Shown: in pieces, positions 1 to 18,253 of the stretch | Numbering within the stretch: position 1 is the first letter of the stretch | How the letters are laid out: each line of letters starts with the position of its first letter | From: a virus | Lineage: Duplodnaviria; Heunggongvirae; Uroviricota; Caudoviricetes | Reading direction: 5' to 3' (one strand) | Virus record (IMG/VR): IMGVR_UViG_2718218361_000001 | Length of the DNA: 18,292 bases | Notes under the pieces: model-generated | Told to the model about the DNA's origin: nothing | Database searches by the model: none | What the model saw: only the letters and a program-made list of their open reading frames with translations | Program-made: the position numbers and the translations under genes

Positions 1-1374
1 ATGTTAGTTAGTAAAAACAACGAATTTAACACTAGCTCATTTATAGATAGTGGAAATTGTAATGAAAGAAAATCTTCTGAATCCATGGAGCTACTAGCTT
101 ATAGTATTATAAATTTAATTTGTAAGAAAGCTGCCTCAGGGACGTATCGCGGTGCTCTTGAAACTTTACAAAAAATGATGTCTGAATGTATATATCATGA
201 AGGCAACGCCTTTGTCATTATGGGAGTTGGAGAACAATTAAAACGTATTAAATATGAAGTTGGTGAAAATAACTTAAAGGTATTCAACGTACACTTTAAT
301 AATAATCACGAGTTAGTTAGTTCTGGTGAGCCTGACGTAATATGTTTAAGCAAGCAGGTCTGGGAAAATCTTCTCATTAAACTAAAGCTGGAAAACAATG
401 AAAATGTGTTTTCTGAAACTAAAAAATTATCGAATAAAAATAATGACGATCAGTTTTTTGAATGCGCTAAAAGAAATGAACAGAACCTTTTCGATAATAT
501 AAGAAAAAGTGATTTTCATGTTGGTTTACTTAAGCCAAGTAGTACGCGTAGTGTTATTTTAGAAACGCCGCCAAATGTCTGTATGGAATCACGTAATTCA
601 TATGAAAACAAAATAGATGAGATTTCATCTTTGTCAGAGTCAAAGGAACACCCCATAGATATTCAAGAAAAAAAAGATGCGTTTGTGAATGAGTTCAAGG
701 GGGTATTATTTGATAAAAATACAAGGTCTTCAGAGCTTCTGTTTAATTTTTATGAGTGTTGCTATAAGTTTTTACCAAGAGCTCAGCCTCAAGATAAAAT
801 CGATAGCTATAATTCAGCACTGCAAGCTTTTTCCATTTTTTGTTCATCTACGTTGACACATAATAATATAGGCTTTGATTTCAAATTATTTCCTGAAGTC
901 AAGCTGTCTGGAGAACATCTTGAAACGGTATTCAAATACAAAAATGGCGATGATGTCCGGGAGATAGCCAAAATTAACATTACTCTCCAAAAAGAAGAGG
1001 GTGGTTTATATAATTTACGTGGATTGGATTTTAAGGGGTGCTTCTTTTCTGGACAGAACTTCAGTAACTATGATATTCAATATGTGAACTGGGGAACGTC
1101 ATTGTTTGATGTTGATACTCCGTGTATTTTTAATGCGCCTGCTTACAACAAGAGTAATGAAAAATCATTAAAACCTGTGAGCGAAAACGGTTTAAGTGGA
1201 GTATTGACTGATCGTAATAATAAAATAAAACTCATCACGGGCGTGGCACCATTCGATGATATTTTATTTATGGATGATGACTTTGATGATAGTTCCTCTG
1301 AGGATGATCCCGTTGAGAATAGTCCTGTTGTGACTAGTCCCGTTGTATCAAGTTCTAAAAGCAGTTTTCAATGA
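1..1374 (+). CDS. Hypothetical low-GC protein (457 aa ORF), possibly 5'-truncated by the window edge; short pentapeptide-repeat-like stretch and acidic Ser/Asp-rich C-terminal tail
   Basis: Long uninterrupted ORF in an AT-rich segment. Translation contains YNLRG-LDFKG-CFFSG-QNFSN (pentapeptide-repeat-like) and a DDDFDDSSSEDD tail. ATG sits at position 1 so the true start cannot be confirmed. No recognisable catalytic motif. Confidence 0.55.
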   Translation: MLVSKNNEFNTSSFIDSGNCNERKSSESMELLAYSIINLICKKAASGTYRGALETLQKMMSECIYHEGNAFVIMGVGEQLKRIKYEVGENNLKVFNVHFNNNHELVSSGEPDVICLSKQVWENLLIKLKLENNENVFSETKKLSNKNNDDQFFECAKRNEQNLFDNIRKSDFHVGLLKPSSTRSVILETPPNVCMESRNSYENKIDEISSLSESKEHPIDIQEKKDAFVNEFKGVLFDKNTRSSELLFNFYECCYKFLPRAQPQDKIDSYNSALQAFSIFCSSTLTHNNIGFDFKLFPEVKLSGEHLETVFKYKNGDDVREIAKINITLQKEEGGLYNLRGLDFKGCFFSGQNFSNYDIQYVNWGTSLFDVDTPCIFNAPAYNKSNEKSLKPVSENGLSGVLTDRNNKIKLITGVAPFDDILFMDDDFDDSSSEDDPVENSPVVTSPVVSSSKSSFQ

Positions 1375-1530
1375 TTAATAAATGGCAATTTTTACAAAGA
1401 GATAATAACGTAGATTGAAACAATATGTATTATTGATTGAGTAAACGGGATTATTCTTCACACTACATCCATTTTAGTGTCACTACCAAAGAAAAAGGGG
1501 CTACGTTTTCATGTAACCCCTTGATTTATT

Positions 1531-1560
1531 TGGTGGGCTGGCAGTGACTGAATTGGTGCT
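1531..1560. repeat. Degenerate copy of the ssrA 3' end (att-core-like remnant)
   Basis: tatttggtgg-gctggcagtgactgaat here resembles tatttggtggagctggcgggagttgaac at the ssrA 3' end (17887-17915) and the second copy at 5706-5733. Alignment done by eye. Confidence 0.4.
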
Positions 1561-1643
1561 GTAATTGGTTGAAATATTTCATCTAATGTCTGGTTCAACT
1601 TTCCTTAGCTGCCTGAAAGTTTTTTGATCTTACCCAGCAATAA

Positions 1644-1745
1644 CAGCGTTACGGTGCACCACGCCTGACTGAAGAACTGCGTGCTCAGGGTTACCACTTC
1701 AACGTAAAACCGTGGCAGGAGGTCCGGACTGAAAAAACTGGTCAG
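1644..1745 (+). pseudogene. IS3-family transposase (OrfB-like) fragment
   Basis: Frame translation [22 protein letters not shown] matches, from memory, the conserved [22 protein letters not shown] block of IS911/IS3-type transposases. Only about 30 codons; flanked by stops; no start or RBS. Confidence 0.5.
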
Positions 1746-1758
1746 GACATTATCGGCG

Positions 1759-1880
1759 GTGGACGCACGGGTAGTCTGTAAACCGAACCGACTGGGGCGC
1801 AGTATGTGGCATCTTGTCGTGCTGTTGGAGGAGCTGTGCAAACGTGGTATTAACTTTCGTGCTCTGGCCCAATCTATATT
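1759..1880 (+). pseudogene. Serine recombinase (resolvase/invertase family) internal fragment
   Basis: Translation NRLGRSMWHLVVLLEELCKRGINFRALAQSI resembles the conserved resolvase/invertase block (LDRLGRS...L..L.ERGI.F.SL.DSI). Catalytic N-terminus and C-terminal HTH are absent. Confidence 0.55.
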
Positions 1881-2285
1881 TGCCCAACAATGGGGGGACG
1901 AATGCTGTAAAAGTAAAACAATCTGCGATCTCAAAGTTATTGTGTGATTTTTATGTGAGCAGAAGATATTCATCAGAAACGATTATGTAAATCATTTTAT
2001 TTTGCCAACGGCCTCATTGTCGAAAGAAAAGAATACGCCCGTATTTCCTGAATGGATTGACTTTTTTATCCAACCACACTTCAGCGCACTGCGTTTAAAA
2101 AATGCCTCATTCTTATGCGGAATATCATCATTTCATCATGATGTCTTTGATGAGCGGTGAACACAATACACTTGCGCTGTCTCTTCAGGATGAATCCCCT
2201 GGTCTGGTGCCTGTGGGCTGATGTTGCAGCAGAGCTAAGGTCGCTTAAACGCTACTCAGTATTCACTTTTCAGAGGATGAAATTT

Positions 2286-5200
2286 ATGAACAGGACCAGT
2301 CCCCATTATTGTCGCCGCTCAGTACTTTCCTTATTGATATCTGCCTTGATATATGCCCCGCCTGGGATGACGGCCTTCACTCCTGATGTTATTGGTGTGG
2401 TAAACGATGAGACTGTAGATGGCAGCCAAAGAGTAGATGAACGAGGTACAACAAATAACACTCATATTATCAACCATGGCCAGCAGAATGTTCATGGCGG
2501 GGTATCTAATGGAAGTCTTATTGAATCGGGTGGATATCAAGATGTAGGAAGTCATAACAATTTTGTGGGGCAGGCTAATAATACAACCATTAACGGAGGA
2601 AGACAGACAATTCATGACGGGGGCATTTCCACCGGTACGATAATCGACAGTGGCAATCAGGACGTTTATACAGGTGGTATCAGCAATGGAACGACAATTA
2701 AGGGTGGTAATTCACACATAAGTGGGGGGACTGCGAATGGAACCATCATTGATGGTGGAGGGCAGAAAGTAACAACTCAGGGGCATGTTGATGGTACAAC
2801 GATAAATAAGTCCGGTTATCAGGACATCACGCAAGGAAGTATTGCAACGAACACAATCATAAATGGTGGACGACAGTATGTTGAACAGAGCACAGTAGGA
2901 ACAACCACCATTAAAAATGGCGGTGAGCAAAGAGTATATGAAAGCCATGCGCTGGACACGACGATTGAAGGTGGAACTCAGTCTCTGAATAATAAGTCAA
3001 CGGCAAAAATACTCAGATCTATTCTGGTGGTACGCAAATTGTTGATTACACCAGCTCCTCGGATGTTATTGAAGTTTATTCCGGTGGCGTGCTTGATGTT
3101 AGTGGTGGTACGGCAACAAATGTTACCCAGCACGATGGTGCAATTTTAAAAACAAACACTAACGGTACGACGGTGAGCGGTACGAATAGTGAAGGTGCAT
3201 TCTCCATCCACAATCACGTGGCAGACAATGTGTTGCTGGAAAACGGTGGTCATTTAGACATAAACGCATATGGTTCGGCAAACAAGACGATTATTAAAGA
3301 TAAAGGAACAATGTCAGTTTTAACGAATGCTAAAGCTGATGCGACCCGAATAGATAACGGCGGGGTAATGGATGTTACCGGAAACGCGACCAATACCATA
3401 ATCAATGGTGGTACACAGAATATTAATAATCATGGTATTGCCACGGGTACCAATATCAACGGCGGAACGCAAAATATCAAGAGCGGCGGGAAAGCTGACA
3501 CGACAATTATATCCTCCGGGAGCCGGCAGGTTGTTGAGAAAGATGGTACGGCAACTGGCAGCAATATTAGCGCCGGAGGCTCGCTGATTGTCTATACCGG
3601 TGGTATTGCACATGGGGTTAACCAGGAGACGGGCAGTGCTTTAGTTGCCAACACGGGCGCAGGGACTGATATTGAAGGATACAACAAGCTCTCTCACTTC
3701 ACTATTACCGGAGGGGAGGCTAATTATGTTGTGCTGGAAAATACCGGCGAACTGACGGTAGTGGCTAAAACCTCGGCGAAAAATACTACCGTTGATGCTG
3801 GCGGTAAGCTGATTGTCCAGAAGGAGGCTAAAACAGATACCACCAGACTTAATAATGGTGGCGTTCTGGAGGTTCAGGACGGTGGTGAGGCTAAGCATGT
3901 TGAGCAACAATCCGGCGGCGCATTAATTGCTTCCACAACTTCCGGAACCCTTATCGAAGGAACCAACAGTTATGGTGATGCTTTCTACATCAGGAATTCA
4001 GAAGCTAAAAATGTAGTGCTGGAAAACGCTGGCTCATTAACAGTCGTCACTGGTTCCCGGGCAGTTGATACGATTATTAATGCCAACGGCAAAATGGATG
4101 TTTATGGAAAAGATGTTGGCACTGTACTCAATAGTGCTGGCACCCAAACAATATATGCCAGTGCCACTTCTGATAAAGCAAATATCAAAGGTGGCAAGCA
4201 AACGGTATATGGATTAGCCACTGAGGCAAATATCGAAAGTGGTGAACAAATTGTTGATGGTGGGTCAACAGAGAAAACACACATCAATGGTGGCACGCAA
4301 ACCGTTCAGAATTATGGTAAGGCAATCAATACCGATATCGTCTCTGGCCTACAACAAATTATGGCAAACGGGACAGCGGAAGGTTCCATTATTAATGGGT
4401 GTTCACAGGTAGTTAATGAGGGCGGTCTGGCTGAAAACTCGGTGCTTAATGACGGCGGCACACTCGATGTGCGGGAGAAAGGCAGCGCAACGGGGATACA
4501 GCAGAGTAGCCAGGACGCTTTGGTTGCAACCACCAGGGCGACGCGGGTCACAGGAACACGCGCGGATGGCGTCGCGTTCAGCATCGAGCAGGGTGCGGCG
4601 AACAATATCCTGCTGGCAAATGGCGGCGTGTTAACCATGGAGTCAGACACCTCTTCTGACAAAACACAGGTCAATACGGGCGGACGGGAGATCGTCAAAA
4701 CAAAAGCCACTGCGACAGGCACGACGCTCACCGGCGGCGAACAAATCGTCGAGGGGGTGGCGAATGAGACAACGATTAACGACGGCGGAATACAAACAGT
4801 TTCAGCTAACGGAGAGGCAATAAAAACAAAGATCAATGAAGGCGGTACGCTGACAGTTAACGATAATGGCAAAGCGACAGATATCGTCCAGAACAGCGGT
4901 GCCGCTCTCCAGACGAGCACGGCTAACGGTATTGAAATCAGCGGTACTCACCAGTACGGCACTTTTTCCATTTCCGGCAATTTAGCGACCAATATGTTGC
5001 TGGAAAATGGCGGTAATTTATTGGTATTAGCAGGTACCGAAGCTCGCGACTCCACGGTTGGCAGCGGTGGAGCCGCCAACGGCAGTTATCGCAGCAACGG
5101 GCTGGGCGGTCACATTGAAACCGGGATGCGATTTACCGATGGTAACTGGAACCTGACGCCGTATGCATCGTTAACGGGGGTTCACCGCTGATAACCCTGA

Positions 5201-5546
5201 ATATCATTTATCCAATGGCATGGAATCGAAATCAGTCGATACCCGCAGTTTATATCGTGAACTGGGTGCAACGCTGAGTTACAACATGCGTCTGGGGAAC
5301 GGTATGGAAGTTGAGCCGTGGCTGAAGGCGGCTGTGCGCAAAGAATTTGTCGATGATAACCGGGTGAAAGTGAATAGTGACGGTAATTTCGTCAATGATT
5401 TGTCGGGCAGACGTGGAATATACCAGGCAGGTATTAAAGCCTCATTCAGCAGTACGTTAAGCGGGCATCTTGGGGTGGGGTATAGCCATGGTGCCGGTGT
5501 GGAATCCCCGTGGAACGGGGTAGCTGGTGTGAACTGGTCGTTCTGA
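2286..5546 (+). pseudogene. Autotransporter adhesin (AIDA-I/self-associating type) disrupted by frameshifts
   Basis: ATG 2286 with GAGGA 8 nt upstream and a signal-peptide-like N-terminus (MNRTSPHYCRRSVLSLLISALIYA). About 900 aa of degenerate passenger repeats (IxGGxQ, NGGxL) spread over three reading frames. Frame changes sit at an A5 tract (3005-3009) and a G5 tract (5176-5180). C-terminus ends in an aromatic-rich barrel-like segment ...GVNWSF, but the barrel part looks short. Confidence 0.65.
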
Positions 5547-5555
5547 CCATCAACG

Positions 5556-5580
5556 AAAAAGCCCACATCTGTGGGCTTTC
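5556..5580 (+). terminator. Rho-independent terminator-like hairpin after the autotransporter gene
   Basis: GCCCAC-atct-GTGGGC stem-loop (5561-5576) followed by TTTC, 15 nt after the TGA at 5544-5546. A-run upstream means it could act in both directions. Confidence 0.5.
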
Positions 5581-5705
5581 ATGTCACCAGGAGCCGCGGC
5601 TCCTTTGCGTATCCTTTTATGTCTCTTCACCGTCTGGTCGGTGTCCTGCTGAGACTGCTAACTTCCTGTTTTTATTGGTGTTGTCCTTATACCGTCCAAT
5701 CATGA

Positions 5706-5733
5706 TTGGTGGGCTGGCGGAGTATGAATTTGC
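5706..5733. repeat. Degenerate ssrA 3'-end copy; candidate distal att site of the satellite
   Basis: ttggtgg-gctggcgg-agtatgaatttgc resembles ttggtggagctggcgggagttgaacccgc at the ssrA 3' end, roughly 24 of 30 positions by eye. It lies just outside the left arm-type repeats. Confidence 0.45.
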
Positions 5734-5781
5734 ATATTATATTGTTGTTTTTATTGTATATTTATTTTTATGGTCTTTATT

Positions 5782-5805
5782 GGTATACCTAAGCGTATAC
5801 CAATA
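5782..5805. repeat. Integrase arm-type-like repeats, left end of the satellite
   Basis: GGTATACCTAAGCGTATACCAATA matches CGTATACCTAAACGTATACCAATA at 17757-17780 at 22 of 24 positions. Contains two (G/C)GTATAC units 12 bp apart. Confidence 0.5.
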
Positions 5806-5897
5806 GCGGGGTGCAATACTTATTTAACTTAAAAAAAATCATCCCTAAATAGGTCGTTTTATATTCAAAAAACAAAAAAAATCTTTTTTAAATAAGT

Positions 5898-9121: not shown

Positions 9122-9324
9122 AAGGGCAATCTCCAATAAGTAGCGGTTATTGCCACCACCAGAGCTGCAAATCTCATGGGTGATGGCCCGGACGGGGTTT
9201 GCAGTACCGGCCTTATTGGAAACCGGCCAGCCCGAAGGCTGCCCCGCCCGGACCACCATTATCTGACAGGAGCCACGGTGTAAGCACCACAGCCCGAAAA
9301 ATAGGTGTGCCTGAGCAACGACAT

Positions 9325-9346
9325 AAAAAAACACGCTCGACGCGTG
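9325..9346 (-). terminator. Candidate rho-independent terminator between the AlpA-like gene and the small-ORF/primase operon
   Basis: On the minus strand a CACGC-gtcga-GCGTG hairpin (9332-9346) is followed by a U7 run (A7 at 9325-9331 on plus). Stem is only 5 bp. Confidence 0.4.
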
Positions 9347-9474
9347 CTGTGTCGCCAATAAGTTACACGGGCTGCAAATCCCGGCTGCCGATTTTGCGGC
9401 AGCAGAAAAACTATAACTGGAAAGCTTGCCAGGACGCAAGCCACAAAAAAAGAGATGAGACTGCAAAGCCAGAT

Positions 9475-10639: not shown

Positions 10640-11392
10640 ATGACAACTGTTAACCAGATCCCTGATGCAAACATTACACCCTCCCTCCCACCGAAAATTC
10701 GCGAAGCGGTAGAAAAAGTTAAAGCAGCAAAAGCTGTCTGGCAGGAAGAACGGCGAATACAAACTGAAGCCGCTGCAATGACTGAAACTATCCGTAAACG
10801 TCAGGAAGATACAAAAACGGAGACGCAGGCGCTTAATGATGAATGGCGAAACCTGTTTCGTGAGAATCAGGGGAATATGACGCCACGAATGAAAAAACTG
10901 CGGGCAGAAATCGCCCTGGGACGCGAAACACTTGATGAGTTCGAAGATTTGCTTGAAGCTCACGCCGCAGAAAAAGAATTCCTGCCCTGGAAAACTGCGG
11001 ATGCTGCAAACCGCTACATCAGCGAACATAACCGGCTGATTGAAACTCATGCAGAGTGGCTCTGGAATGAGTTTATGAAGGAACACGGCCAGAAACTTAT
11101 TCAGATCCTTGGATTGCTGAAAATGACTCTGGGGCGAAGCGCTTCTTCCGTTATCGGCGTAGTTCATACCGTAAACGACCCCGAAAGTGTGCTGAAGCAA
11201 TTTATCAGCGAGCAACTCACCGCTCCGGCACTGTCCTGTAACGTATCTTCAACGGATGTTATTGCCCTGCCGGGGATTAGCATTTATGCGGACGATAAAG
11301 CCCTACAGGATGCCAGACAATCACCCAGCCCTGCAGCGCGTTCCCGGATGCTTAAACAGCGTGACATGGTTAAAGGGGAAGAGAAGGGATGA
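10640..11392 (+). CDS. Sid/Psu-family protein, candidate capsid size-determination (Sid-like), 250 aa
   Basis: ATG at 10640 with GGAG 5 nt upstream (ORF-track start 10607 is a TTG without RBS). First gene of the late operon as in P4. Shares the NEFMKEHGQKL block with the Psu-like product (ENFMSEHGNAL) and MTPRMKKLRAEIA with the paralog at 12237 (VTPEMKALRAEYL). Stop overlaps the next start (ATGA). Confidence 0.7.
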   Translation: MTTVNQIPDANITPSLPPKIREAVEKVKAAKAVWQEERRIQTEAAAMTETIRKRQEDTKTETQALNDEWRNLFRENQGNMTPRMKKLRAEIALGRETLDEFEDLLEAHAAEKEFLPWKTADAANRYISEHNRLIETHAEWLWNEFMKEHGQKLIQILGLLKMTLGRSASSVIGVVHTVNDPESVLKQFISEQLTAPALSCNVSSTDVIALPGISIYADDKALQDARQSPSPAARSRMLKQRDMVKGEEKG

Positions 11393-11943
11393 ATCCTGGA
11401 AACATTACTAAGGAAGCTCTCAACAACTATCGCGCGGAGATAAAAAGCTGGCTGACACTACGTAATGTGCAAAGTACCAGCCAACTTCGTCTGGCGGCTC
11501 TGCTGGATACTGAAGAAAAACCGGCAGCATATGCCAGCCAGCTTGAGAATCTTCGTGAGCGTCTTGCTCTCCTCGAATGGCAGATTAACTGCGCCGCTAG
11601 GGACGGTCTTTATGCTCACCAGATTGTGCTGGAAAGCTGTGTTACAAGCGCAACTGAAAACTTCATGAGCGAGCATGGTAATGCACTCACTGACGCTCTG
11701 GCTCCTTTTCTTTGCGCACCATACGGGCTTGAGGCGGCAATGAAAATATTACGCACCGCTGTAGTCCGACAAACCGAAATCCGTACTCCTGTAATTTCAG
11801 CAGCATATAAGAGCGTTATCGACGAAACCGGATTAACGGTGGATGCATCAATGCGAGCTGATGCTTCAGCCATTTTCACCCCGGCAAAACATAAAGTTTT
11901 TCTGGCCCGCCTCAACAGGCTTAATGAAAAAGGAGGGTACTGA
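11389..11943 (+). CDS. psu: Psu-like protein (polarity suppression / capsid decoration family), 184 aa
   Basis: ATG at 11389 preceded by a purine-rich stretch. Blocks EHGNALTDALAP and FTPAKHKVFLAR resemble my recollection of P4 Psu (QHGTALAAALAP, FTPAQNMIFSRK). Size close to P4 Psu (190 aa). Confidence 0.75.
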   Translation: MNPGNITKEALNNYRAEIKSWLTLRNVQSTSQLRLAALLDTEEKPAAYASQLENLRERLALLEWQINCAARDGLYAHQIVLESCVTSATENFMSEHGNALTDALAPFLCAPYGLEAAMKILRTAVVRQTEIRTPVISAAYKSVIDETGLTVDASMRADASAIFTPAKHKVFLARLNRLNEKGGY

Positions 11944-11944
11944 T

Positions 11945-12217
11945 ATGGCCCTGAAATGTCCTGAATGTGGCACGGTCGCACACGCCAGAACCAGCGCCTA
12001 TGAAGCTCCATCGGTTAAACGCTCATGGTATCAGTGCCAGAATCTTGAATGCTCCTGCACATTTACTGCCCTGGAAAGTGTGGACACGATAATTATGAAG
12101 CCCCATAAACCAGTGGCGCCTGAACCTGAATCACAGAGCGATTCTCTTGTACGTCAGCCGCATACACTGGGCCGCTACGGTTCAGCCTGTACCCTTAAAG
12201 ACCGTCATGCACAATAA
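11945..12217 (+). CDS. Ogr/Delta-family zinc-finger late transcription activator, 90 aa (single domain)
   Basis: ATG at 11945 with GGAGG 8 nt upstream, 1 nt after the Psu stop. CPECGTVAHARTS...WYQCQNLECSCTFTALESV matches the Ogr/Delta signature (recalled P2 Ogr: CPLCQHAAHARTS...YHQCQNVNCSATFITYESV). Confidence 0.85.
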   Translation: MALKCPECGTVAHARTSAYEAPSVKRSWYQCQNLECSCTFTALESVDTIIMKPHKPVAPEPESQSDSLVRQPHTLGRYGSACTLKDRHAQ

Positions 12218-12236
12218 ATTGGGGAGGAACAAAAAT

Positions 12237-13049
12237 ATGACAGAACAACAATTGACGGAAAACCAGATTCAGGCCGCAACCGGACACGTAGTAACACTCC
12301 TCGCGAGGGCAAAAAAACCGCTTCAGGATGCGGATTGGCTCATGAATTTGCCTGCAAATGAAATAGCCCGCGAGACGGAAAAACTGACAAAAAGCCTTTC
12401 CTCCGACTGGCAGTCCCGAATTATCGACCTTTACCAAAAAATGCAGGCCTGGGTGGAGGCCAGACAGGCCGAAGAAGCAGCCATTGAGAACCTTCGGGCT
12501 CTGCGCCAGCATCAGACCGAAACTGAGCAGGCCAGCAAAGACAATCGGGCGCAGTTCAGGGAACTGCTTAACCAGAGCGGCGGCATCGTAACGCCGGAGA
12601 TGAAAGCTCTCCGGGCTGAGTATCTGGAACAACAGGAAACAGCCACAGAACTCGCCGGGCTGATTACTGAAAAAGAAGATCAGCTGCCGGTACTGGCTCA
12701 AGCGACCACGCGTAAAGCAAACGTCTATATAAACTGCCATCATGGCATCACTGAGGAGCGTATCGATGAGCTTTTACGAGACTTTTTTATTTTCCACGGT
12801 GCCGAATTGAGCGGCCTGCTCAGGATGAAGTACAGACAATTTGAGCGATATAGCTCAGCACATATACCGGGCATTATTGAAGGCACAAATGATGCAGATA
12901 CGCTGTATCGTGAATTTATCCTGAATCTAATGCTGAAGTGGACGAATGAAATATTACCGTTAAGATTCCGGGACGACGTGATGAGCCTGACCGGTTCAGC
13001 TCCGGTATCAGGATCGCATGACGACAGAAAAAAAAGTAAGCTGTTTTGA
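12237..13049 (+). CDS. Second Sid/Psu-family paralog, 270 aa, function unassigned
   Basis: ATG at 12237 with GGGGAGG 9 nt upstream (ORF-track start 12147 lacks an RBS). Coiled-coil-like; shares sequence blocks with the Sid-like gene at 10640. Followed by a strong terminator. Confidence 0.7.
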   Translation: MTEQQLTENQIQAATGHVVTLLARAKKPLQDADWLMNLPANEIARETEKLTKSLSSDWQSRIIDLYQKMQAWVEARQAEEAAIENLRALRQHQTETEQASKDNRAQFRELLNQSGGIVTPEMKALRAEYLEQQETATELAGLITEKEDQLPVLAQATTRKANVYINCHHGITEERIDELLRDFFIFHGAELSGLLRMKYRQFERYSSAHIPGIIEGTNDADTLYREFILNLMLKWTNEILPLRFRDDVMSLTGSAPVSGSHDDRKKSKLF

Positions 13050-13073
13050 CCTGAACAGAAAAGCTCACTTAAG

Positions 13074-13095
13074 CCCGGCCAGTGCCGGGTTTTTT
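13074..13095 (+). terminator. Rho-independent terminator of the late operon
   Basis: CCCGGC-cagt-GCCGGG hairpin (13074-13089) followed by T6 (13090-13095), 25 nt after the stop at 13047-13049. Confidence 0.7.
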
Positions 13096-13236
13096 GATGT
13101 CTATAGCCTGAGTGCATGTCTATACTGCATGAAATCGCATGACTTTATGCACTTGCATTTTTACTTCCCAGACCAGATAAGGCGCGGTTTAGAGCCTATC
13201 ATGCAACTGCATGAAAACCACTCCCTAAAGCGGGCA

Positions 13237-13255
13237 GGCGTGGCGGGGCTACGAG
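13237..13255. other. Candidate cos-like site (P2/186-family cohesive-end-like sequence)
   Basis: GGCGTGGCGGGG matches the first 12 nt of the P2/186-type 19-nt cohesive end as I recall it (GGCG[A/T]GGCGGGGAAAGCA-). The remaining 7 nt diverge. Position between the late operon and the cargo matches where cos sits in P4. Confidence 0.3.
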
Positions 13256-13629
13256 CGCGCGCTTCGAGGTAAAAGGATGCCGAGCATACAACTCATCGAT
13301 AATGCGGTAGGGTAAATAAGGGGGGGGGCTTGCTATTTTGTACGCTGTAAGGAAGCAAAAGGAAGTCAGTGAGCTAGGGTTAAACAACCCAGCGTATGAG
13401 GTTAAAGTCTAAAATTGAGAACAGCCGTATATGGAGTAATAAAAAGGTGAGGTTGAATCTTTGAGAGGCTGTTTATCAAGGCATAAACCTCTATAGGATG
13501 CATGGTTTTGCATGTGTTTAAATGTTACGCCAATTTAGGCCAACGCCTTTAGGGCGTGGCCTATTTCCATCTTTGCAACTCCATCAAATGCGTCTTCATG
13601 ATGAAGATGAGGATTAGGCGGAAATTGAA

Positions 13630-15399
13630 TTAAAGACGCCACAGACTCTCAAGATCGAGCGTGTCACTTTGCGGTGCACTTTCTTCAGAAAGTCTATCGA
13701 TCTGCACAAGAAGCGGAGTATGAAATGCTGTTCCCGAAATTATGCATGCGCCTGGAGGAAGGGTAGGTATAAGTGTTCTGGATGCTGCATCTAATGTACT
13801 TAAGGTGTTTTTAAGAAGGTAAAGGTCGTTTTCATTTACCAAGCGATGTATGAAATAATTATGAAGTTGTGATACGATTGTTGGCGATATATCAAATGGT
13901 CGCTGGCTTGAAATAGTTACAAAATAACCAAACTTCCTACCTTCCTTTATTATCTCCTCAAATAATTCAAGTCGATAATCTTTCCAAGTCTCAGCCTCCC
14001 TCACAGAGCTTTCGGAAAGAATGTTGTGAGCTTCATCTATTATTAAATGAAAACTTTCTTTTTTGTTGTCCGAAGACTTGTGTTCTATGAAGGAACATTT
14101 CGCAATCATCATCGGAATCGTTTTTTTTATGGTTTGATTGCATTCTTTGAGAGAGATTATGGATATTGGTTTATAGCTTTGTTGAGCGCGGTTTATTTCT
14201 ATAACCTTTGCTAGAGATGAGCTCATTGCTATTATTTTGTTTATCAAAGGATATATGTGATCATATTGAACATAGTTTCTGGATACAGAATTTATTAATT
14301 GCAGTGTTGCACGTATAGCAATTTCATCAAATACACTAGTAACATGGAATTGGCTATTGTATGTTGCTTGAGTGTGTTTTAAAACTTCAGCAGTAGTGTC
14401 AAGCCAACCCGAAGGGTGTGTATATTTTTCTTGGTTTGAATGCCAAGTAAAGAGAGAGAGTTCATCTCGTATCTTTTGTTGATCGTTCTCATCGAAATAA
14501 GGCAGTAGACTTTTTAATAAATTAACGGTCTCTTTGTGAGGATTTGTTCCAAACATTATTTCAATTGTTCTTTTTAAATATGTGTTAAGATCGTCATCAT
14601 ACTTTAACTTGCTCTTTATTAAATGTGTAAGAAATGGTTTTTGTGTTTTCTCGGTTGCAGAGAATAAAACTGACAACAGTTCATCATCCCAAAATTCTTT
14701 TTCACCGAAATATATCTTATCACCATCTTTTTTTGTGCTAAGTTTTGTGGAGTGACATAGTTCTGGAAAGGAATTCTCTAATGTCCCATATTCACCATTG
14801 AAATCAATCAATACGAAATTTGACTTATCGATCAATTGTTGTTTGTTTTCAATTCTATTGAAAAGTGATTGATATATTTTTGCTAGAGTATTTGACTTTC
14901 CACTTCCTGTATTTCCAAAAATACCTATATGAGAATTAAAAACACCGTTTATGGGAATGTTTATTGGTAATTCCTCTAGCATGGATTTGCCAATGTTAAT
15001 GAGCGGAGTTTTTGTATTTTTGCTAAAACTATAGATTTCAGATATTTTATCATCCGAAATTAAATAAAGTCTATCATTTATCATTGGGAGATATTTTATT
15101 CCAGAGTAGAATTTACCCTCAAAAAAATACCCGAGAATATTTAGTTCAACGAATCTTTCATATTTTTTCTGCTCAATGTCATCAGTACGAATGTTAAAGT
15201 TCTCAACAATTTCCTCACCTATGATCTTACCTACAATGTCCTGATAACCTTTACGAACTAATACAAATTCATTTATTGATATACCACGCAATATTTTTCC
15301 ATTGTGGAAGTATGTTGATTGGAACAAGTCATGGTTTATTTTTGCTTTGACAGTGGTTCCTTTTACTTGGGTCACTTTACCTATATTCAGTTCGTCCAT
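13630..15399 (-). CDS. HerA-like (FtsK/HerA superfamily, DUF87-type) ATPase, 589 aa; second gene of the cargo pair
   Basis: ATG at 15399 with AGGAGA 9 nt upstream (ORF-track start 15408 is a TTG). Walker A GIFGNTGSGKSNT and Walker B HLIIDEAHN; N-terminal beta-rich region before the ATPase core. About 28-30% GC by hand count. Overlaps the upstream gene by 13 nt. Confidence 0.85.
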   Translation of the reverse strand: MDELNIGKVTQVKGTTVKAKINHDLFQSTYFHNGKILRGISINEFVLVRKGYQDIVGKIIGEEIVENFNIRTDDIEQKKYERFVELNILGYFFEGKFYSGIKYLPMINDRLYLISDDKISEIYSFSKNTKTPLINIGKSMLEELPINIPINGVFNSHIGIFGNTGSGKSNTLAKIYQSLFNRIENKQQLIDKSNFVLIDFNGEYGTLENSFPELCHSTKLSTKKDGDKIYFGEKEFWDDELLSVLFSATEKTQKPFLTHLIKSKLKYDDDLNTYLKRTIEIMFGTNPHKETVNLLKSLLPYFDENDQQKIRDELSLFTWHSNQEKYTHPSGWLDTTAEVLKHTQATYNSQFHVTSVFDEIAIRATLQLINSVSRNYVQYDHIYPLINKIIAMSSSLAKVIEINRAQQSYKPISIISLKECNQTIKKTIPMMIAKCSFIEHKSSDNKKESFHLIIDEAHNILSESSVREAETWKDYRLELFEEIIKEGRKFGYFVTISSQRPFDISPTIVSQLHNYFIHRLVNENDLYLLKNTLSTLDAASRTLIPTLPPGACIISGTAFHTPLLVQIDRLSEESAPQSDTLDLESLWRL

Positions 15400-16502
15400 G
15401 TTACCCAATCTCCTGTTTCTGATTTGAAAATTCTATCAATAAAAGTATCAAAAGAAATTTTATGATCAACTTCTTTAGGATAAATGAAGGTTATTCTGGG
15501 GTCATTTACTGTATTATTTATATCTTGCTTGCTTTGATTGTTGTAGCAAAAAACAAATACTTTTAGTGTTGGATTACTTAAAGATCTTTTTATTATTTCA
15601 AGAATGTGCTCGTCTTGAAATGAAAACCCAAAACAAATTAATACAGTTTGTGGTTTCTCTAATTCATAGCTTAATAATCTTAAGCTCTGATAGTAGTGTT
15701 GCTGAAATACTGTTTCTGAAAACTTTTCTTTGGTCGGATTAACTATCGCGAGTGAGTTATAGTATGATTTGAATTCTTCAAGAGAATTTTGGTCATTAGC
15801 ATTTAAATCCAAGTAATCAGCAAGATCATCGTTAGTTGTATTTAGGGTAATTACTAAATCATCTATGGTTTTATCTGTCTCTAAATTTATTAATTCAGGT
15901 GAAACGCTTGGGTAGTTGATGCTTATTGTTTCATTCTCATCTCTTTTCCATGAGACCGAACCATGCATTTTAATTAAATTGATAGTTGGTAACTCATGTT
16001 TGTACATATCATGAGTTCCTTGATGCCAAGTAGTAATATGAAAATTACTAATGTTTAATCTTCTGTTTTTAAAACCTATAGCACCATCATTGAAATGGAA
16101 TGTTTTCTTAGCTAATGCATTGTCTGCTGCTGTTTCAAAAAAAAGATCATAGTTAGTTGTGAAAATATTGGCTCGTCTTATTTGATTGGAACCTTTTTTT
16201 TCTAATAAAGTAACAAGTTCATCTAGAAAATCTGTATAGCTATTTATTGTTGAGGTGTATTTTTTGTTTTCTACACTTGGCTCAATGCAAAATGTTTTTC
16301 TAATGATTTTATTGAAATAAGAACATAAGATAAAATCCTTAACATCGATACAATCTTTATGCGTTAATAATGTCTCATAAGTGGTGTTTTCAGCAAGCCA
16401 CAGCGTTGGTATATACGATGCTGAAGCTCCTGAGCCAAATAGAAAGTTAATATTTTTATCATAAATATTTGATGCTTTGCATGGGAATTCTCTCGTGCTC
16501 AT
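15387..16502 (-). CDS. SIR2-like (sirtuin-fold, predicted NADase) protein, 371 aa; first gene of the cargo pair
   Basis: ATG at 16502 with AAGGA 8 nt upstream, only 10 bp after the integrase stop. Motifs FLFGSGASAS (glycine-rich loop), TTNYD and MHGS (His-Gly) are typical of SIR2-family domains. AT-rich like its partner. Confidence 0.85.
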   Translation of the reverse strand: MSTREFPCKASNIYDKNINFLFGSGASASYIPTLWLAENTTYETLLTHKDCIDVKDFILCSYFNKIIRKTFCIEPSVENKKYTSTINSYTDFLDELVTLLEKKGSNQIRRANIFTTNYDLFFETAADNALAKKTFHFNDGAIGFKNRRLNISNFHITTWHQGTHDMYKHELPTINLIKMHGSVSWKRDENETISINYPSVSPELINLETDKTIDDLVITLNTTNDDLADYLDLNANDQNSLEEFKSYYNSLAIVNPTKEKFSETVFQQHYYQSLRLLSYELEKPQTVLICFGFSFQDEHILEIIKRSLSNPTLKVFVFCYNNQSKQDINNTVNDPRITFIYPKEVDHKISFDTFIDRIFKSETGDWVTWTN

Positions 16503-16512
16503 TTTTATATCC

Positions 16513-17706
16513 TTACTTGCTATTCACTATGAAATTGCCCCACCAATTCATAAGGCCCTTTCTTTTTTCAAGGTAAGTGGAACGATTGTATGCTCTGCGA
16601 ACCTCATTCTTCTCAATGTGAGCAAGCGCTGCTTCAATCACATCTGAATTTAAACCAGCTTCATTCATTGCTGTACTCGCTATAGAGCGTAAACCATGTG
16701 CAACTAATTTACCCCCATATCCAATCCGTTTTAAAGCAGCATTTGCCGTCTGGCTATTCATTGGTTGCTTTGGGTCATTCCGACTCGGAAAAACATGTTC
16801 ACGATGCGCACTGATAGGCTTCATAACATCAAGAATCTCTAATGCCTGAAGAGATAGTGGAACTATGTGCTCGCGCTTAGCCTTCATACGTTCGGCTGGA
16901 ATGGTCCAGAGCTTTGCTTCGAGATCGATCTCTGCCCACCGAGTACCAGATGCTTCAGAAGGACGCACAAGGGTCAGAAGCTGCCATTCAATGAGACAGC
17001 GAGTCGTAACAGATAGATTTGACATTACTAGAGAACGCATCAGCTTTGGTAATTCTTCTGGCCGAAGCGTCGGCATATTTTGTTTTTTTGGCTTTTCAAA
17101 GGCCATTCCAACACCTGATGCTGGGTTTGCATCAATCAGACCAGTGTTTACGGCATAAATCATTATCTCGTTAATACGCTGCACCAGTCGACGTACCGTC
17201 TCAAGCGCTCCACGAGCTTTTATTGGCTCAAGGGCTTCAACCAATGTTCGTGCTTTGATTTGCTGAACAGGGATTTCACCGATTGCAGGAAATACGTCTT
17301 TCTCCAGTGAGCGCCAAATGTCTTTTGCGTAGTCAGGGGTAACGCTTTTGCTTTTTAGCTTGAACCAGTTAGCGGCGACCGTTGAAAAAATACTTTCCAG
17401 AGCGATTTGCTGCTCTTCCTCTGCGGCTTCGGCTTGAATTTGTGGGTCGATTTTGTTGGCTAGTAAAGCAAGGTAATCCGCTCTTAGACTTCGAGCATCA
17501 GCAAGTGAAAGGGAGGGGAAGGCTCCGAGCCCCATCATGGTCCGCTGCTTTGTTGCCGGACGTAGATAGCGAAAGCGCCATAGTTTCTTGCCGCTGGTTT
17601 TCACTAGCAGGAAAAGTCCATCGCCATCATGCAGCGTTAGATCCTTATCGATTGCTTTTGCGCGCAGAACTTCGGTGTTGGTCAGGGGGCGTGTTGTCCG
17701 TGCCAC
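16513..17706 (-). CDS. int: P4-type tyrosine integrase (IntA-like), 397 aa
   Basis: GTG start at 17706 with AAGGAG 8 nt upstream. N-terminus MARTTRPLT...DGDGLFLLV and C-terminal HGLRSIAST...VRRAYNRSTY (H-x-x-R and catalytic Tyr) resemble my recollection of CP4-57 IntA. Lies next to the ssrA 3' end in the same orientation. Confidence 0.92.
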   Translation of the reverse strand: MARTTRPLTNTEVLRAKAIDKDLTLHDGDGLFLLVKTSGKKLWRFRYLRPATKQRTMMGLGAFPSLSLADARSLRADYLALLANKIDPQIQAEAAEEEQQIALESIFSTVAANWFKLKSKSVTPDYAKDIWRSLEKDVFPAIGEIPVQQIKARTLVEALEPIKARGALETVRRLVQRINEIMIYAVNTGLIDANPASGVGMAFEKPKKQNMPTLRPEELPKLMRSLVMSNLSVTTRCLIEWQLLTLVRPSEASGTRWAEIDLEAKLWTIPAERMKAKREHIVPLSLQALEILDVMKPISAHREHVFPSRNDPKQPMNSQTANAALKRIGYGGKLVAHGLRSIASTAMNEAGLNSDVIEAALAHIEKNEVRRAYNRSTYLEKRKGLMNWWGNFIVNSK

Positions 17707-17728
17707 TGTGGCCGCTCCTTCATGAGTT

Positions 17729-17775
17729 GGTATACGCTTTTAGGTATACATCCTACCGTATACCTAAACGTATAC
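17729..17775. repeat. Integrase arm-type-like repeat cluster between int and ssrA
   Basis: Four (G/C)GTATAC units starting at 17729, 17743, 17757 and 17769 (spacing 14, 14, 12 bp). The last two are duplicated at 5782-5805. Confidence 0.5.
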
Positions 17776-17890
17776 CAATAATCACAGGATTTAGCCGGAT
17801 ATTGTCGGACAACGACAGACACAAAAAAGCCCGCAGGGCTTATGCCGTGCGGGCTTTCTGTACTTCACCGGACGAATCCGGATCATTATT

Positions 17891-18253
17891 TGGTGGAGCT
17901 GGCGGGAGTTGAACCCGCGTCCGAAATTCCTACATCCTCGGTACTACATGCTTAGTCAGTCTTTACATTCGCTTGCCAGCTGCGGACGGACACGCCACTA
18001 ACAAACTAGCCTGATTAAGTTTTAACGCTTCAACCCCAGGCAGGGCTTCCACGCGATCTCTTTTGGGTTTGACCTCTCTTGATCCCCGTCCTAAGAGCGG
18101 AGGCTAGGGAGAGAGGGCTCTAAGCAGGTTATTAAGCTGCTAAAGCGTAGTTTTCGTCGTTTGCGACTATTTTTTGCGGCTTTTTACGAGGCCAACCGCC
18201 CCTCGGCATGCACCTTGGGTTTCGCAAATCCCGTCGAATCCAGAATCAGCCCC
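17891..18253 (-). ncRNA. ssrA: tmRNA (SsrA), 363 nt
   Basis: Reverse complement begins GGGGCTGATTCTGGATTCGACGGG and ends GGTTCAACTCCCGCCAGCTCCACCA, matching E. coli ssrA as I recall it. Contains GCAAACGACGAAAACTACGCTTTAGCAGCTTAA, which encodes the ANDENYALAA tag peptide. Confidence 0.95.

Follow-up and report, generated by a model that had tools for sequence, protein, structure and literature searches.

A predicted cos site of the Fels-2/SEN8 class beside the defence cargo of a P4-like satellite in Escherichia coli

The stretch of DNA considered here (18,292 nucleotides, which we call the window) carries, at positions 13237–13255, a 19-mer, GGCGTGGCGGGGCTACGAG, that by its alignments is predicted to be the complete cos of a second, documented class of P2-family cohesive ends, the class of Fels-2, SEN8 and Cartapus. 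We are fairly confident that it is also the functional cos cleavage site of the satellite in which it lies. Some 250 bases downstream, against the cargo genes, lies a second, decayed cos of the 186/P4 class, and the element as a whole is a hybrid that brings the two together.

What kind of element carries the site?

The window matches the chromosome of E. coli S21 at 100% identity, and the same is true of H14 and PO06101. The element, about 12 kb long and inserted next to ssrA in S21, is a P4-like satellite; it encodes proteins that match P4 proteins in tblastn searches, and its P4-like core genes keep their conserved order, cos lying between the late operon and int. In the RefSeq annotation of the identical S21 locus, sid, psu, delta and a 270-aa ORF come after genes for the alpha primase, an Icd-like protein and an HTH regulator; beyond a gap lie genes for an ATP-binding protein, a SIR2 protein and the integrase beside ssrA. 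All of the satellite genes are open and annotated there as intact, and the satellite, in which int, alpha, sid, psu, delta and the C4 immunity RNA are all present, is apparently intact. Its main features are as follows.

9176–9263: C4 immunity RNA, P4-type (Rfam)
10640–13049, + strand: satellite late operon, upstream of cos (RefSeq annotation)
10640–11392, + strand: sid (RefSeq annotation)
11389–11943, + strand: psu (RefSeq annotation; Pfam Psu)
11945–12217, + strand: delta (RefSeq annotation; Pfam Ogr_Delta)
12237–13049, + strand: 270-aa Sid paralog, between delta and cos
13630–15399, − strand: HerA ATPase (PADLOC HerA, E 7e-200; Pfam DUF87/HerA)
15387–16502, − strand: SIR2 (PADLOC SIR2, E 3e-66; Pfam SIR2_2)
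16513–17706, − strand: satellite integrase, adjoining ssrA (annotation; 36% identity to P4 Int by tblastn)
17891–18253: ssrA, the tmRNA (Rfam)

Over 185 aa, the 270-aa ORF shares 30% identity with Sid (E 1e-16). A Sid paralog adjoining cos is also conserved in Pantoea and Enterobacter satellites, some of which have no match to the window's sid at the usual place. The cargo (13630–16502, − strand) is, on these profile matches, a putative anti-phage defence pair of the SIR2-HerA type, and in other elements (L283–L288) the same SIR2-HerA cassette abuts cos sites that fall into at least four sequence classes. In the immunity region (9176–9416, − strand), the C4 antisense RNA, isrK and the c4 a1b1 target all exceed their Rfam gathering scores.

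The element is flanked by 23-nt repeats at 5783–5805 and 17758–17780, which lie 11,975 bp apart (the P4 genome is 11.6 kb) and which may serve for integrase binding instead of forming the crossover core. Palindromic TTGGTATAC...GTATACCAA repeats are seen at both ends of the element (5780–5805 and 17727–17780); these are probably integrase-binding or att-associated sites, and they lie about 110 nt from the 3' end of ssrA rather than inside it. To the left of the satellite, positions 1–5806 hold ypjCB, a recombinase fragment and a frameshifted ypjA autotransporter gene, which are remnants of a CP4-57-type island region beside tRNA-Ile.

Is it a cos, and of which class?

The preliminary description of this DNA had picked out the site as a partial match to the cohesive end of P2 and 186, had suggested that it might be the packaging site of a satellite, and had proposed alignment to P2, 186 and P4 as the means of checking it, with a lack of similarity beyond the first 12 nt counting against the idea. 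Those 12 nt, GGCGTGGCGGGG, are found once in the window (13237–13248, + strand), and with up to one mismatch allowed the chance expectation is 0.04, any match at all being seen in 7 of 200 shuffles. When the joined ends of the P2, 186 and P4 genomes were aligned with the window, the 19-mer fell in exact register with the annotated cosL of all three. Compared with 186 it is identical at 14 of 19 positions, comprising 12/12 in the first 12 nt and 2/7 in the last seven, and compared with P2 and P4 it is identical at 13 of 19, so that the description was right about both the matching beginning and the differing remainder. The similarity, however, continues well past the 12-mer, spanning roughly −126 to +26 relative to the cut, and the objection that had been foreseen thus falls away. 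Within this span a 55-bp core (13208–13262) is identical to P2, P4 and 186 at 42–43 of 55 positions, about 12 positions differing from the P2/186 class; the concept of such a core goes back to Ziermann and Calendar 1990, as cited in PMC5694545 and PMC3931495. To the left of the 19-mer the window has CATGCAACTGCATGAAAACCACTCCCTAAAGCGGGCA against GTGCAACTGCATTAAAACCGCCCCGCAAAGCGGGCG in P4, and the CGCGCGC that trails it is common to both. Three sequence marks of a P2-family cos are present, namely an in-register G-rich segment of 19 nt, a core of about 55 bp and an upstream block of TGCAT repeats, and this extended homology, together with the P4-like position, supports the idea of a satellite packaging site.

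The ending typical of the P2/186/P4 subclass (..GGGGAAAGCAC/T; AAAGCAC or AAAGCAT) is absent, the window's CTACGAG agreeing with it at 2 of 7 positions. A search of phage records matched instead Fels-2, RE2010, Klebsiella and Yersinia P2-like phages, the E. coli phages 813R9 and 500465-1, and Cartapus; in the Cartapus record the matching stretch is annotated as a putative cos, and these Fels-2-like phages have the site in the interval from gpA/DinI to the portal gene. Their 19-mer is GGCGTGGCGGGGATACGAG, which is identical to that of the window at 18 of 19 positions, and the window's core is 51–52/55 identical to those of Fels-2, Cartapus, MLG42, 813R9 and a prophage of S21 itself. Like the class as a whole (GGCGTGGCGGGGNTACGAG), the window has an overhang that closes with NTACGAG and a CGCGCGC after it. 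From the literature, the annotated cos of SEN8 is ggcgtggcggggatacgag, the same string as the 19-mer of the Fels-2-like phages, and further members of the class include Smp131 (GGCGTGGCGGGGAGACGAG). The last seven nucleotides are thus unlike those of P2 and 186 because the site belongs to this second documented class. The P2/186-type label calls for refinement, the site being a complete Fels-2/SEN8 end rather than a degraded P2/186 one.

How is the cos region built?

We derived a position-wise consensus from cos regions of this class, 198 distinct ones from phages and 29 from satellites, and it resolves into two conserved blocks, at −126 to −94 and at about −38 to +26, with a variable spacer between them. 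Of the 99 positions conserved to 90% or more in the satellites, the window agrees with 98, and it agrees with every phage position conserved to that degree inside both blocks, its disagreements with the phage consensus being confined to −94 to −50. The landmarks of the region are these.

13071–13100, + strand: terminator-like hairpin and T run, with a 9-pair stem (13071–13092) and then TTTGATGTCT; found by a terminator scan; ends the late operon
13111–13143, + strand: cos block 1 (−126 to −94), AGTGCATGTCTATACTGCATGAAATCGCATGAC, with three TGCAT/GCATG repeats
13144–13198, no strand: variable inter-block spacer, a terminator hairpin in phages and different sequence in satellites
13208–13262, + strand: 55-bp cos core, made up of TGCATGAAAACCACTCCCTAAAGCGGGCA, GGCGTGGCGGGGCTACGAG and CGCGCGC in that order
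13237–13255, + strand: predicted 19-nt cohesive end, in register with cosL of P2, 186 and P4; cleavage by homology
13263–13488, no strand: start of the variable (cargo/hotspot) side, between the predicted cos and the relic
13489–13628, + strand: decayed second cos (186/P4 class), directly beside the HerA stop codon

Block 1 is kept at 60–90% or more across the 198 phage and 29 satellite regions and aligns with the TGCAT blocks of P2, 186, P4, Fels-2 and the S21 prophage, which makes it a candidate terminase-binding element. Around the core, conservation begins at about 13199. On the other side it stops at +26 in the consensus, where sister satellites switch cargo: homology to them ends at 13262–13264, or in others at 13270–13294, with different cargo beyond. 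This coincidence of a conservation stop with a cargo switch matches the hotspot directly adjoining cos that Rousset et al. 2022 (PMC9122126) and de Sousa and Rocha (PMC8628076) describe for satellites of the P4 type.

As for the spacer as a whole, the preliminary description gave it as 530 bp and noncoding; between annotated genes it measures 580 bp (13050–13629), and although it indeed holds no annotated gene and no Rfam family was found in it, it is far from featureless, containing a terminator, the two cos blocks and the relic cos. Two small ORFs that run across it (13018–13272, + strand; 13199–13387, − strand) are unannotated and were not accepted as genes, and block-wise conservation with a variable spacer in between argues against their being coding. 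A conserved hairpin in the core was likewise considered and rejected, the CCGCCC/GGGCGG pairing of P4 having been lost in this class. A similarity search on the origin of 13263–13488 found only identical elements, as did a blastn-short comparison of 13270–13640 with all of the loci that we had fetched. A run of nine Gs lies at 13320–13328, within the 226 bp that separate the predicted cos from the relic.

How common is the exact variant?

The exact 19-mer, with the same flanks, occurs in at least 120 IMG/VR contigs, and it matched 47 species genomes, mainly of Pantoea, Erwinia, Enterobacter, Pseudescherichia, Phytobacter and Franconibacter; matches in Actinobacteria lack phage flanks and were taken as chance. 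By tblastn with marker proteins, at least 116 of the loci are P2-like phage and at least 24 are P4-like satellite. Among those listed, the phages always have it between gpA/DinI and the portal gene, and the satellites between delta or the Sid paralog and int. The only overhang base that separates the window from the Fels-2-like phages is position 13, which in nature takes A (the Fels-2-like phages), C, G or T, the G and T variants being found in 86 and 4 phages, respectively, and in 6 satellites; the single C/A difference thus falls at a tolerant position. Of 5,426 complete E. coli genomes, 8 have the C variant, all of this satellite lineage, and the A variant is present in about 1,283 genomes.

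Is there a second cos beside the cargo?

The stretch that abuts the HerA stop codon retains a block 1 (13489–13519) that is identical to block 1 of P4 at 25 of 30 positions, a score reached by 0 of 300 shuffles, and the start of a core, TGCAACTCCATCAAA, is still recognisable at 13573–13587, at P4-like spacing from that block. About 11 nt have been deleted at the left nick region, and G-to-A changes run through the overhang. An alignment based on L283 places the relic 19-mer at approximately 13596–13614.

Homologous arms have an intact cos in the same place. In E. coli GDAR2-2 (L280), a classical P4-type satellite has a homologous HerA-SIR2-int arm (74% nucleotide identity) with an intact P4-type cos, GGCGAGGCGGGGAAAGCAC, abutting the HerA stop at the position of the relic. 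The closest HerA relatives in IMG/VR, L283 and L289 (92% amino acid identity), have an intact GGCGTGGCGGGGAGAGCAT cos there, and an intact cos is also found at that place in L286. A global alignment of 13489–13629 with the cos region of L283/L289 scores 22, against −30.3 ± 5.1 for shuffles, none of 2000 reaching it, whereas alignment with GDAR2-2 is marginal (23 of 2000 shuffles reach the score); it is only with the closer relatives L283 and L289 that the relic becomes convincing.

The left arm, with its Fels-2-class cos, is 94–96% identical to those of Enterobacter and other satellites. Since the cargo arm carries a decayed cos of the 186/P4 class, the element is a hybrid of a Fels-2-class left arm and a cargo arm that brought its own, now dead, 186/P4-class cos. 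It is a tempting but tentative step from here to say that a HerA-SIR2-int arm behind a 186/P4-class cos was joined to a Fels-2-class left arm, after which the redundant old cos decayed; and that the element would thus document a change of cos class, which probably also meant a change of helper, is to us an attractive possibility rather than an expectation.

How might the satellite be packaged, and by which helper?

It is from the observed homology, register, position, conservation and co-residence that we infer cleavage, packaging and helper specificity, and the scheme would run as follows. Once the satellite has excised and replicated, its cos, made up of the TGCAT-repeat block at 13111–13143 and the 55-bp core at 13208–13262, would be recognised by a terminase that a P2-family helper supplies (homologues of gpM and gpP). 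This terminase would then introduce nicks staggered by 19 nt around GGCGTGGCGGGGCTACGAG, between 13236 and 13237 on the top strand and between 13255 and 13256 on the bottom strand, leaving 5' overhangs, and the linear genome of about 12 kb would be packaged into capsids made by the helper. The left end of the packaged genome would begin GGCGTGGCGGGGCTACGAGCGCGCGC and continue into the cargo.

Which helpers are at hand? The S21 chromosome has three cos-like places. Chimeric queries, in which a unique SIR2 anchor was joined to a test cos, served to count the sites of each class per genome, and they gave one Fels-2-class site in each of S21, H14 and PO06101, and one P2/186-class site in S21 and H14 but none in PO06101; the P2/186-class site would belong to another satellite or to a prophage. 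The Fels-2-class site of S21 was located by mapping the integration site (rcdA side) of a Fels-2-like prophage of E. coli HS, and it lies in a Fels-2-like P2-family prophage between rcdA and ybjL (L180; NZ_CP010230.1, about 318.6–347.5 kb). Examined from gpA to ogr, this prophage covers gpA, DinI, cargo, portal, both terminase subunits, capsid, tail, lysis genes and ogr, so that its late (head, tail and lysis) gene set is complete. Its cos, GGCGTGGCGGGGATACGAG (L180:1831–1849), differs from that of the satellite at one overhang base, and both blocks align with the satellite's. Three hypothetical genes occupy the prophage's own cos-adjacent hotspot. The gpM and gpP proteins are 95% and 97% identical to those of Fels-2 and much further from those of P2 and 186 (gpM 48–50%, gpP 64%). 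The other head genes, at 59–64%, differ similarly, so that the divergence of the terminases is consistent with class-specific recognition without proving it, and may reflect phylogeny rather than specificity. That the cos sequence determines which terminase packages the satellite, as had been suggested from the outset, is consistent with these data.

What else might explain the site?

The notion that the G-rich 12-mer is a chance match with nothing to do with packaging can be dismissed for practical purposes. GC-rich 19-mers certainly recur by chance, as the flankless Actinobacteria matches illustrate, but the low expected count, more than 90 nt of flanking homology in register and a gene order kept across more than 200 loci all speak against it, and the alignments refute it. 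A worthier competitor holds that this is a dead cos homologue, which the terminases present in E. coli fail to cut because of the C at position 13 or other changes, and that the satellite is a stranded island that can no longer be mobilised. In its favour are the rarity of the lineage (8 E. coli genomes), the absence of the exact variant from every P2-like prophage among the 5,426 complete E. coli genomes and the decayed neighbour, which shows that cos sites do decay in this element. We nevertheless consider it quite improbable: unlike that plainly decayed relic, the site keeps all but one of the conserved satellite positions, more than 100 P2-like phages employ the very same 19-mer, natural variation at position 13 is free, and the satellite's genes are open throughout. 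A functional cleavage site remains our strongly preferred reading.

The identity of the helper is a separate matter. P4 is packaged by both P2 and 186 despite overhangs that differ at 2 positions, and it is thus reasonable to ask whether cos classes are interchangeable for the terminase, such that a classical P2/186-class helper packages this site. The identity of the first 12 nt to 186 and the 42–43 matching core positions would fit such a helper, and a P2/186-class cos is there in the chromosomes of S21 and H14. Against this stand the 2/7 agreement in the last overhang bases and the dozen or so differing core positions, the much greater similarity to the Fels-2 class, the presence of a Fels-2-class prophage in all three genomes with the exact element, one of which (PO06101) has no P2/186-class site, and the fact that the element let its own 186/P4-class cos decay, and we think a P2/186-class helper unlikely. 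Our leaning, held with some reserve, is that the Fels-2 class is the relevant helper class. Given that the satellite cos is of the Fels-2/SEN8 class, the most likely helper would be Fels-2-like, the rcdA–ybjL prophage being an example; and with the C variant in no P2-like prophage of those 5,426 E. coli genomes, a resident helper would be a near match rather than an exact one.

Why does it matter?

Where the packaged satellite genome begins and ends is set by its cos, which probably also sets which P2-family phages can mobilise the satellite and its SIR2-HerA cargo; a Fels-2-class site, with such a prophage in the same cell, amounts to a concrete helper prediction. In a P4-like satellite a cos is to be expected here and has been described before, and the sequence class is documented. 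The relic cos and the class switch that it implies are a modest addition to the known picture, and we found no description of a relic cos beside cargo in the hotspot literature (PMC9122126, PMC8628076). On a small scale, the relic clearly indicates that defence cargo passes from one satellite to another with its adjoining cos attached, and it suggests that satellites can change cos class. If cos class does set the packaging terminase, this would be the footprint of satellites retargeting to the helper resident in their host.

How does the site compare with known systems?

In P4 (NC_001609), cos likewise follows the late operon and precedes non-essential cargo and int, and it has a 19-nt G-rich overhang in the same register, the same trailing CGCGCGC box and an upstream TGCAT block, with a shared flank of TGCA(A/G)CTGCAT.AAAACC...AAGCGGGC. 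The two are identical at 13 of 19 overhang and 43 of 55 core positions, but the last seven overhang nucleotides are CTACGAG in the window and AAAGCAC in P4, and the late operon runs sid-psu-delta-Sid paralog rather than sid-delta-psu. P2 and 186, whose 19-nt 5' cohesive ends have been mapped experimentally, share this family of cos architecture, and in 186 the first 12 overhang nucleotides are those of the window, whereas the 3' half of the P2/186 overhang is different.

The Fels-2-like phages (Fels-2, SEN8, RE2010, Cartapus, Yersinia MLG42 and E. coli 813R9) come closest, at 18/19 in the overhang and 51–52/55 in the core, with the same block 1 (GTGCATGTCTATGC.GCATGA..CGCATGA) at an equal distance. 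They differ in having A rather than C at overhang position 13, a phage terminator hairpin in the inter-block spacer where the window has none, and the interval from gpA/DinI to the portal gene, rather than a satellite, as the setting of the site. Finally, the published hotspot (PMC9122126, PMC8628076) is arranged just as here, with cos abutting variable cargo between psu/delta and int and conservation ending a few bases past the overhang; what sets the present element apart from it is that its cargo arm keeps a decayed, earlier cos.
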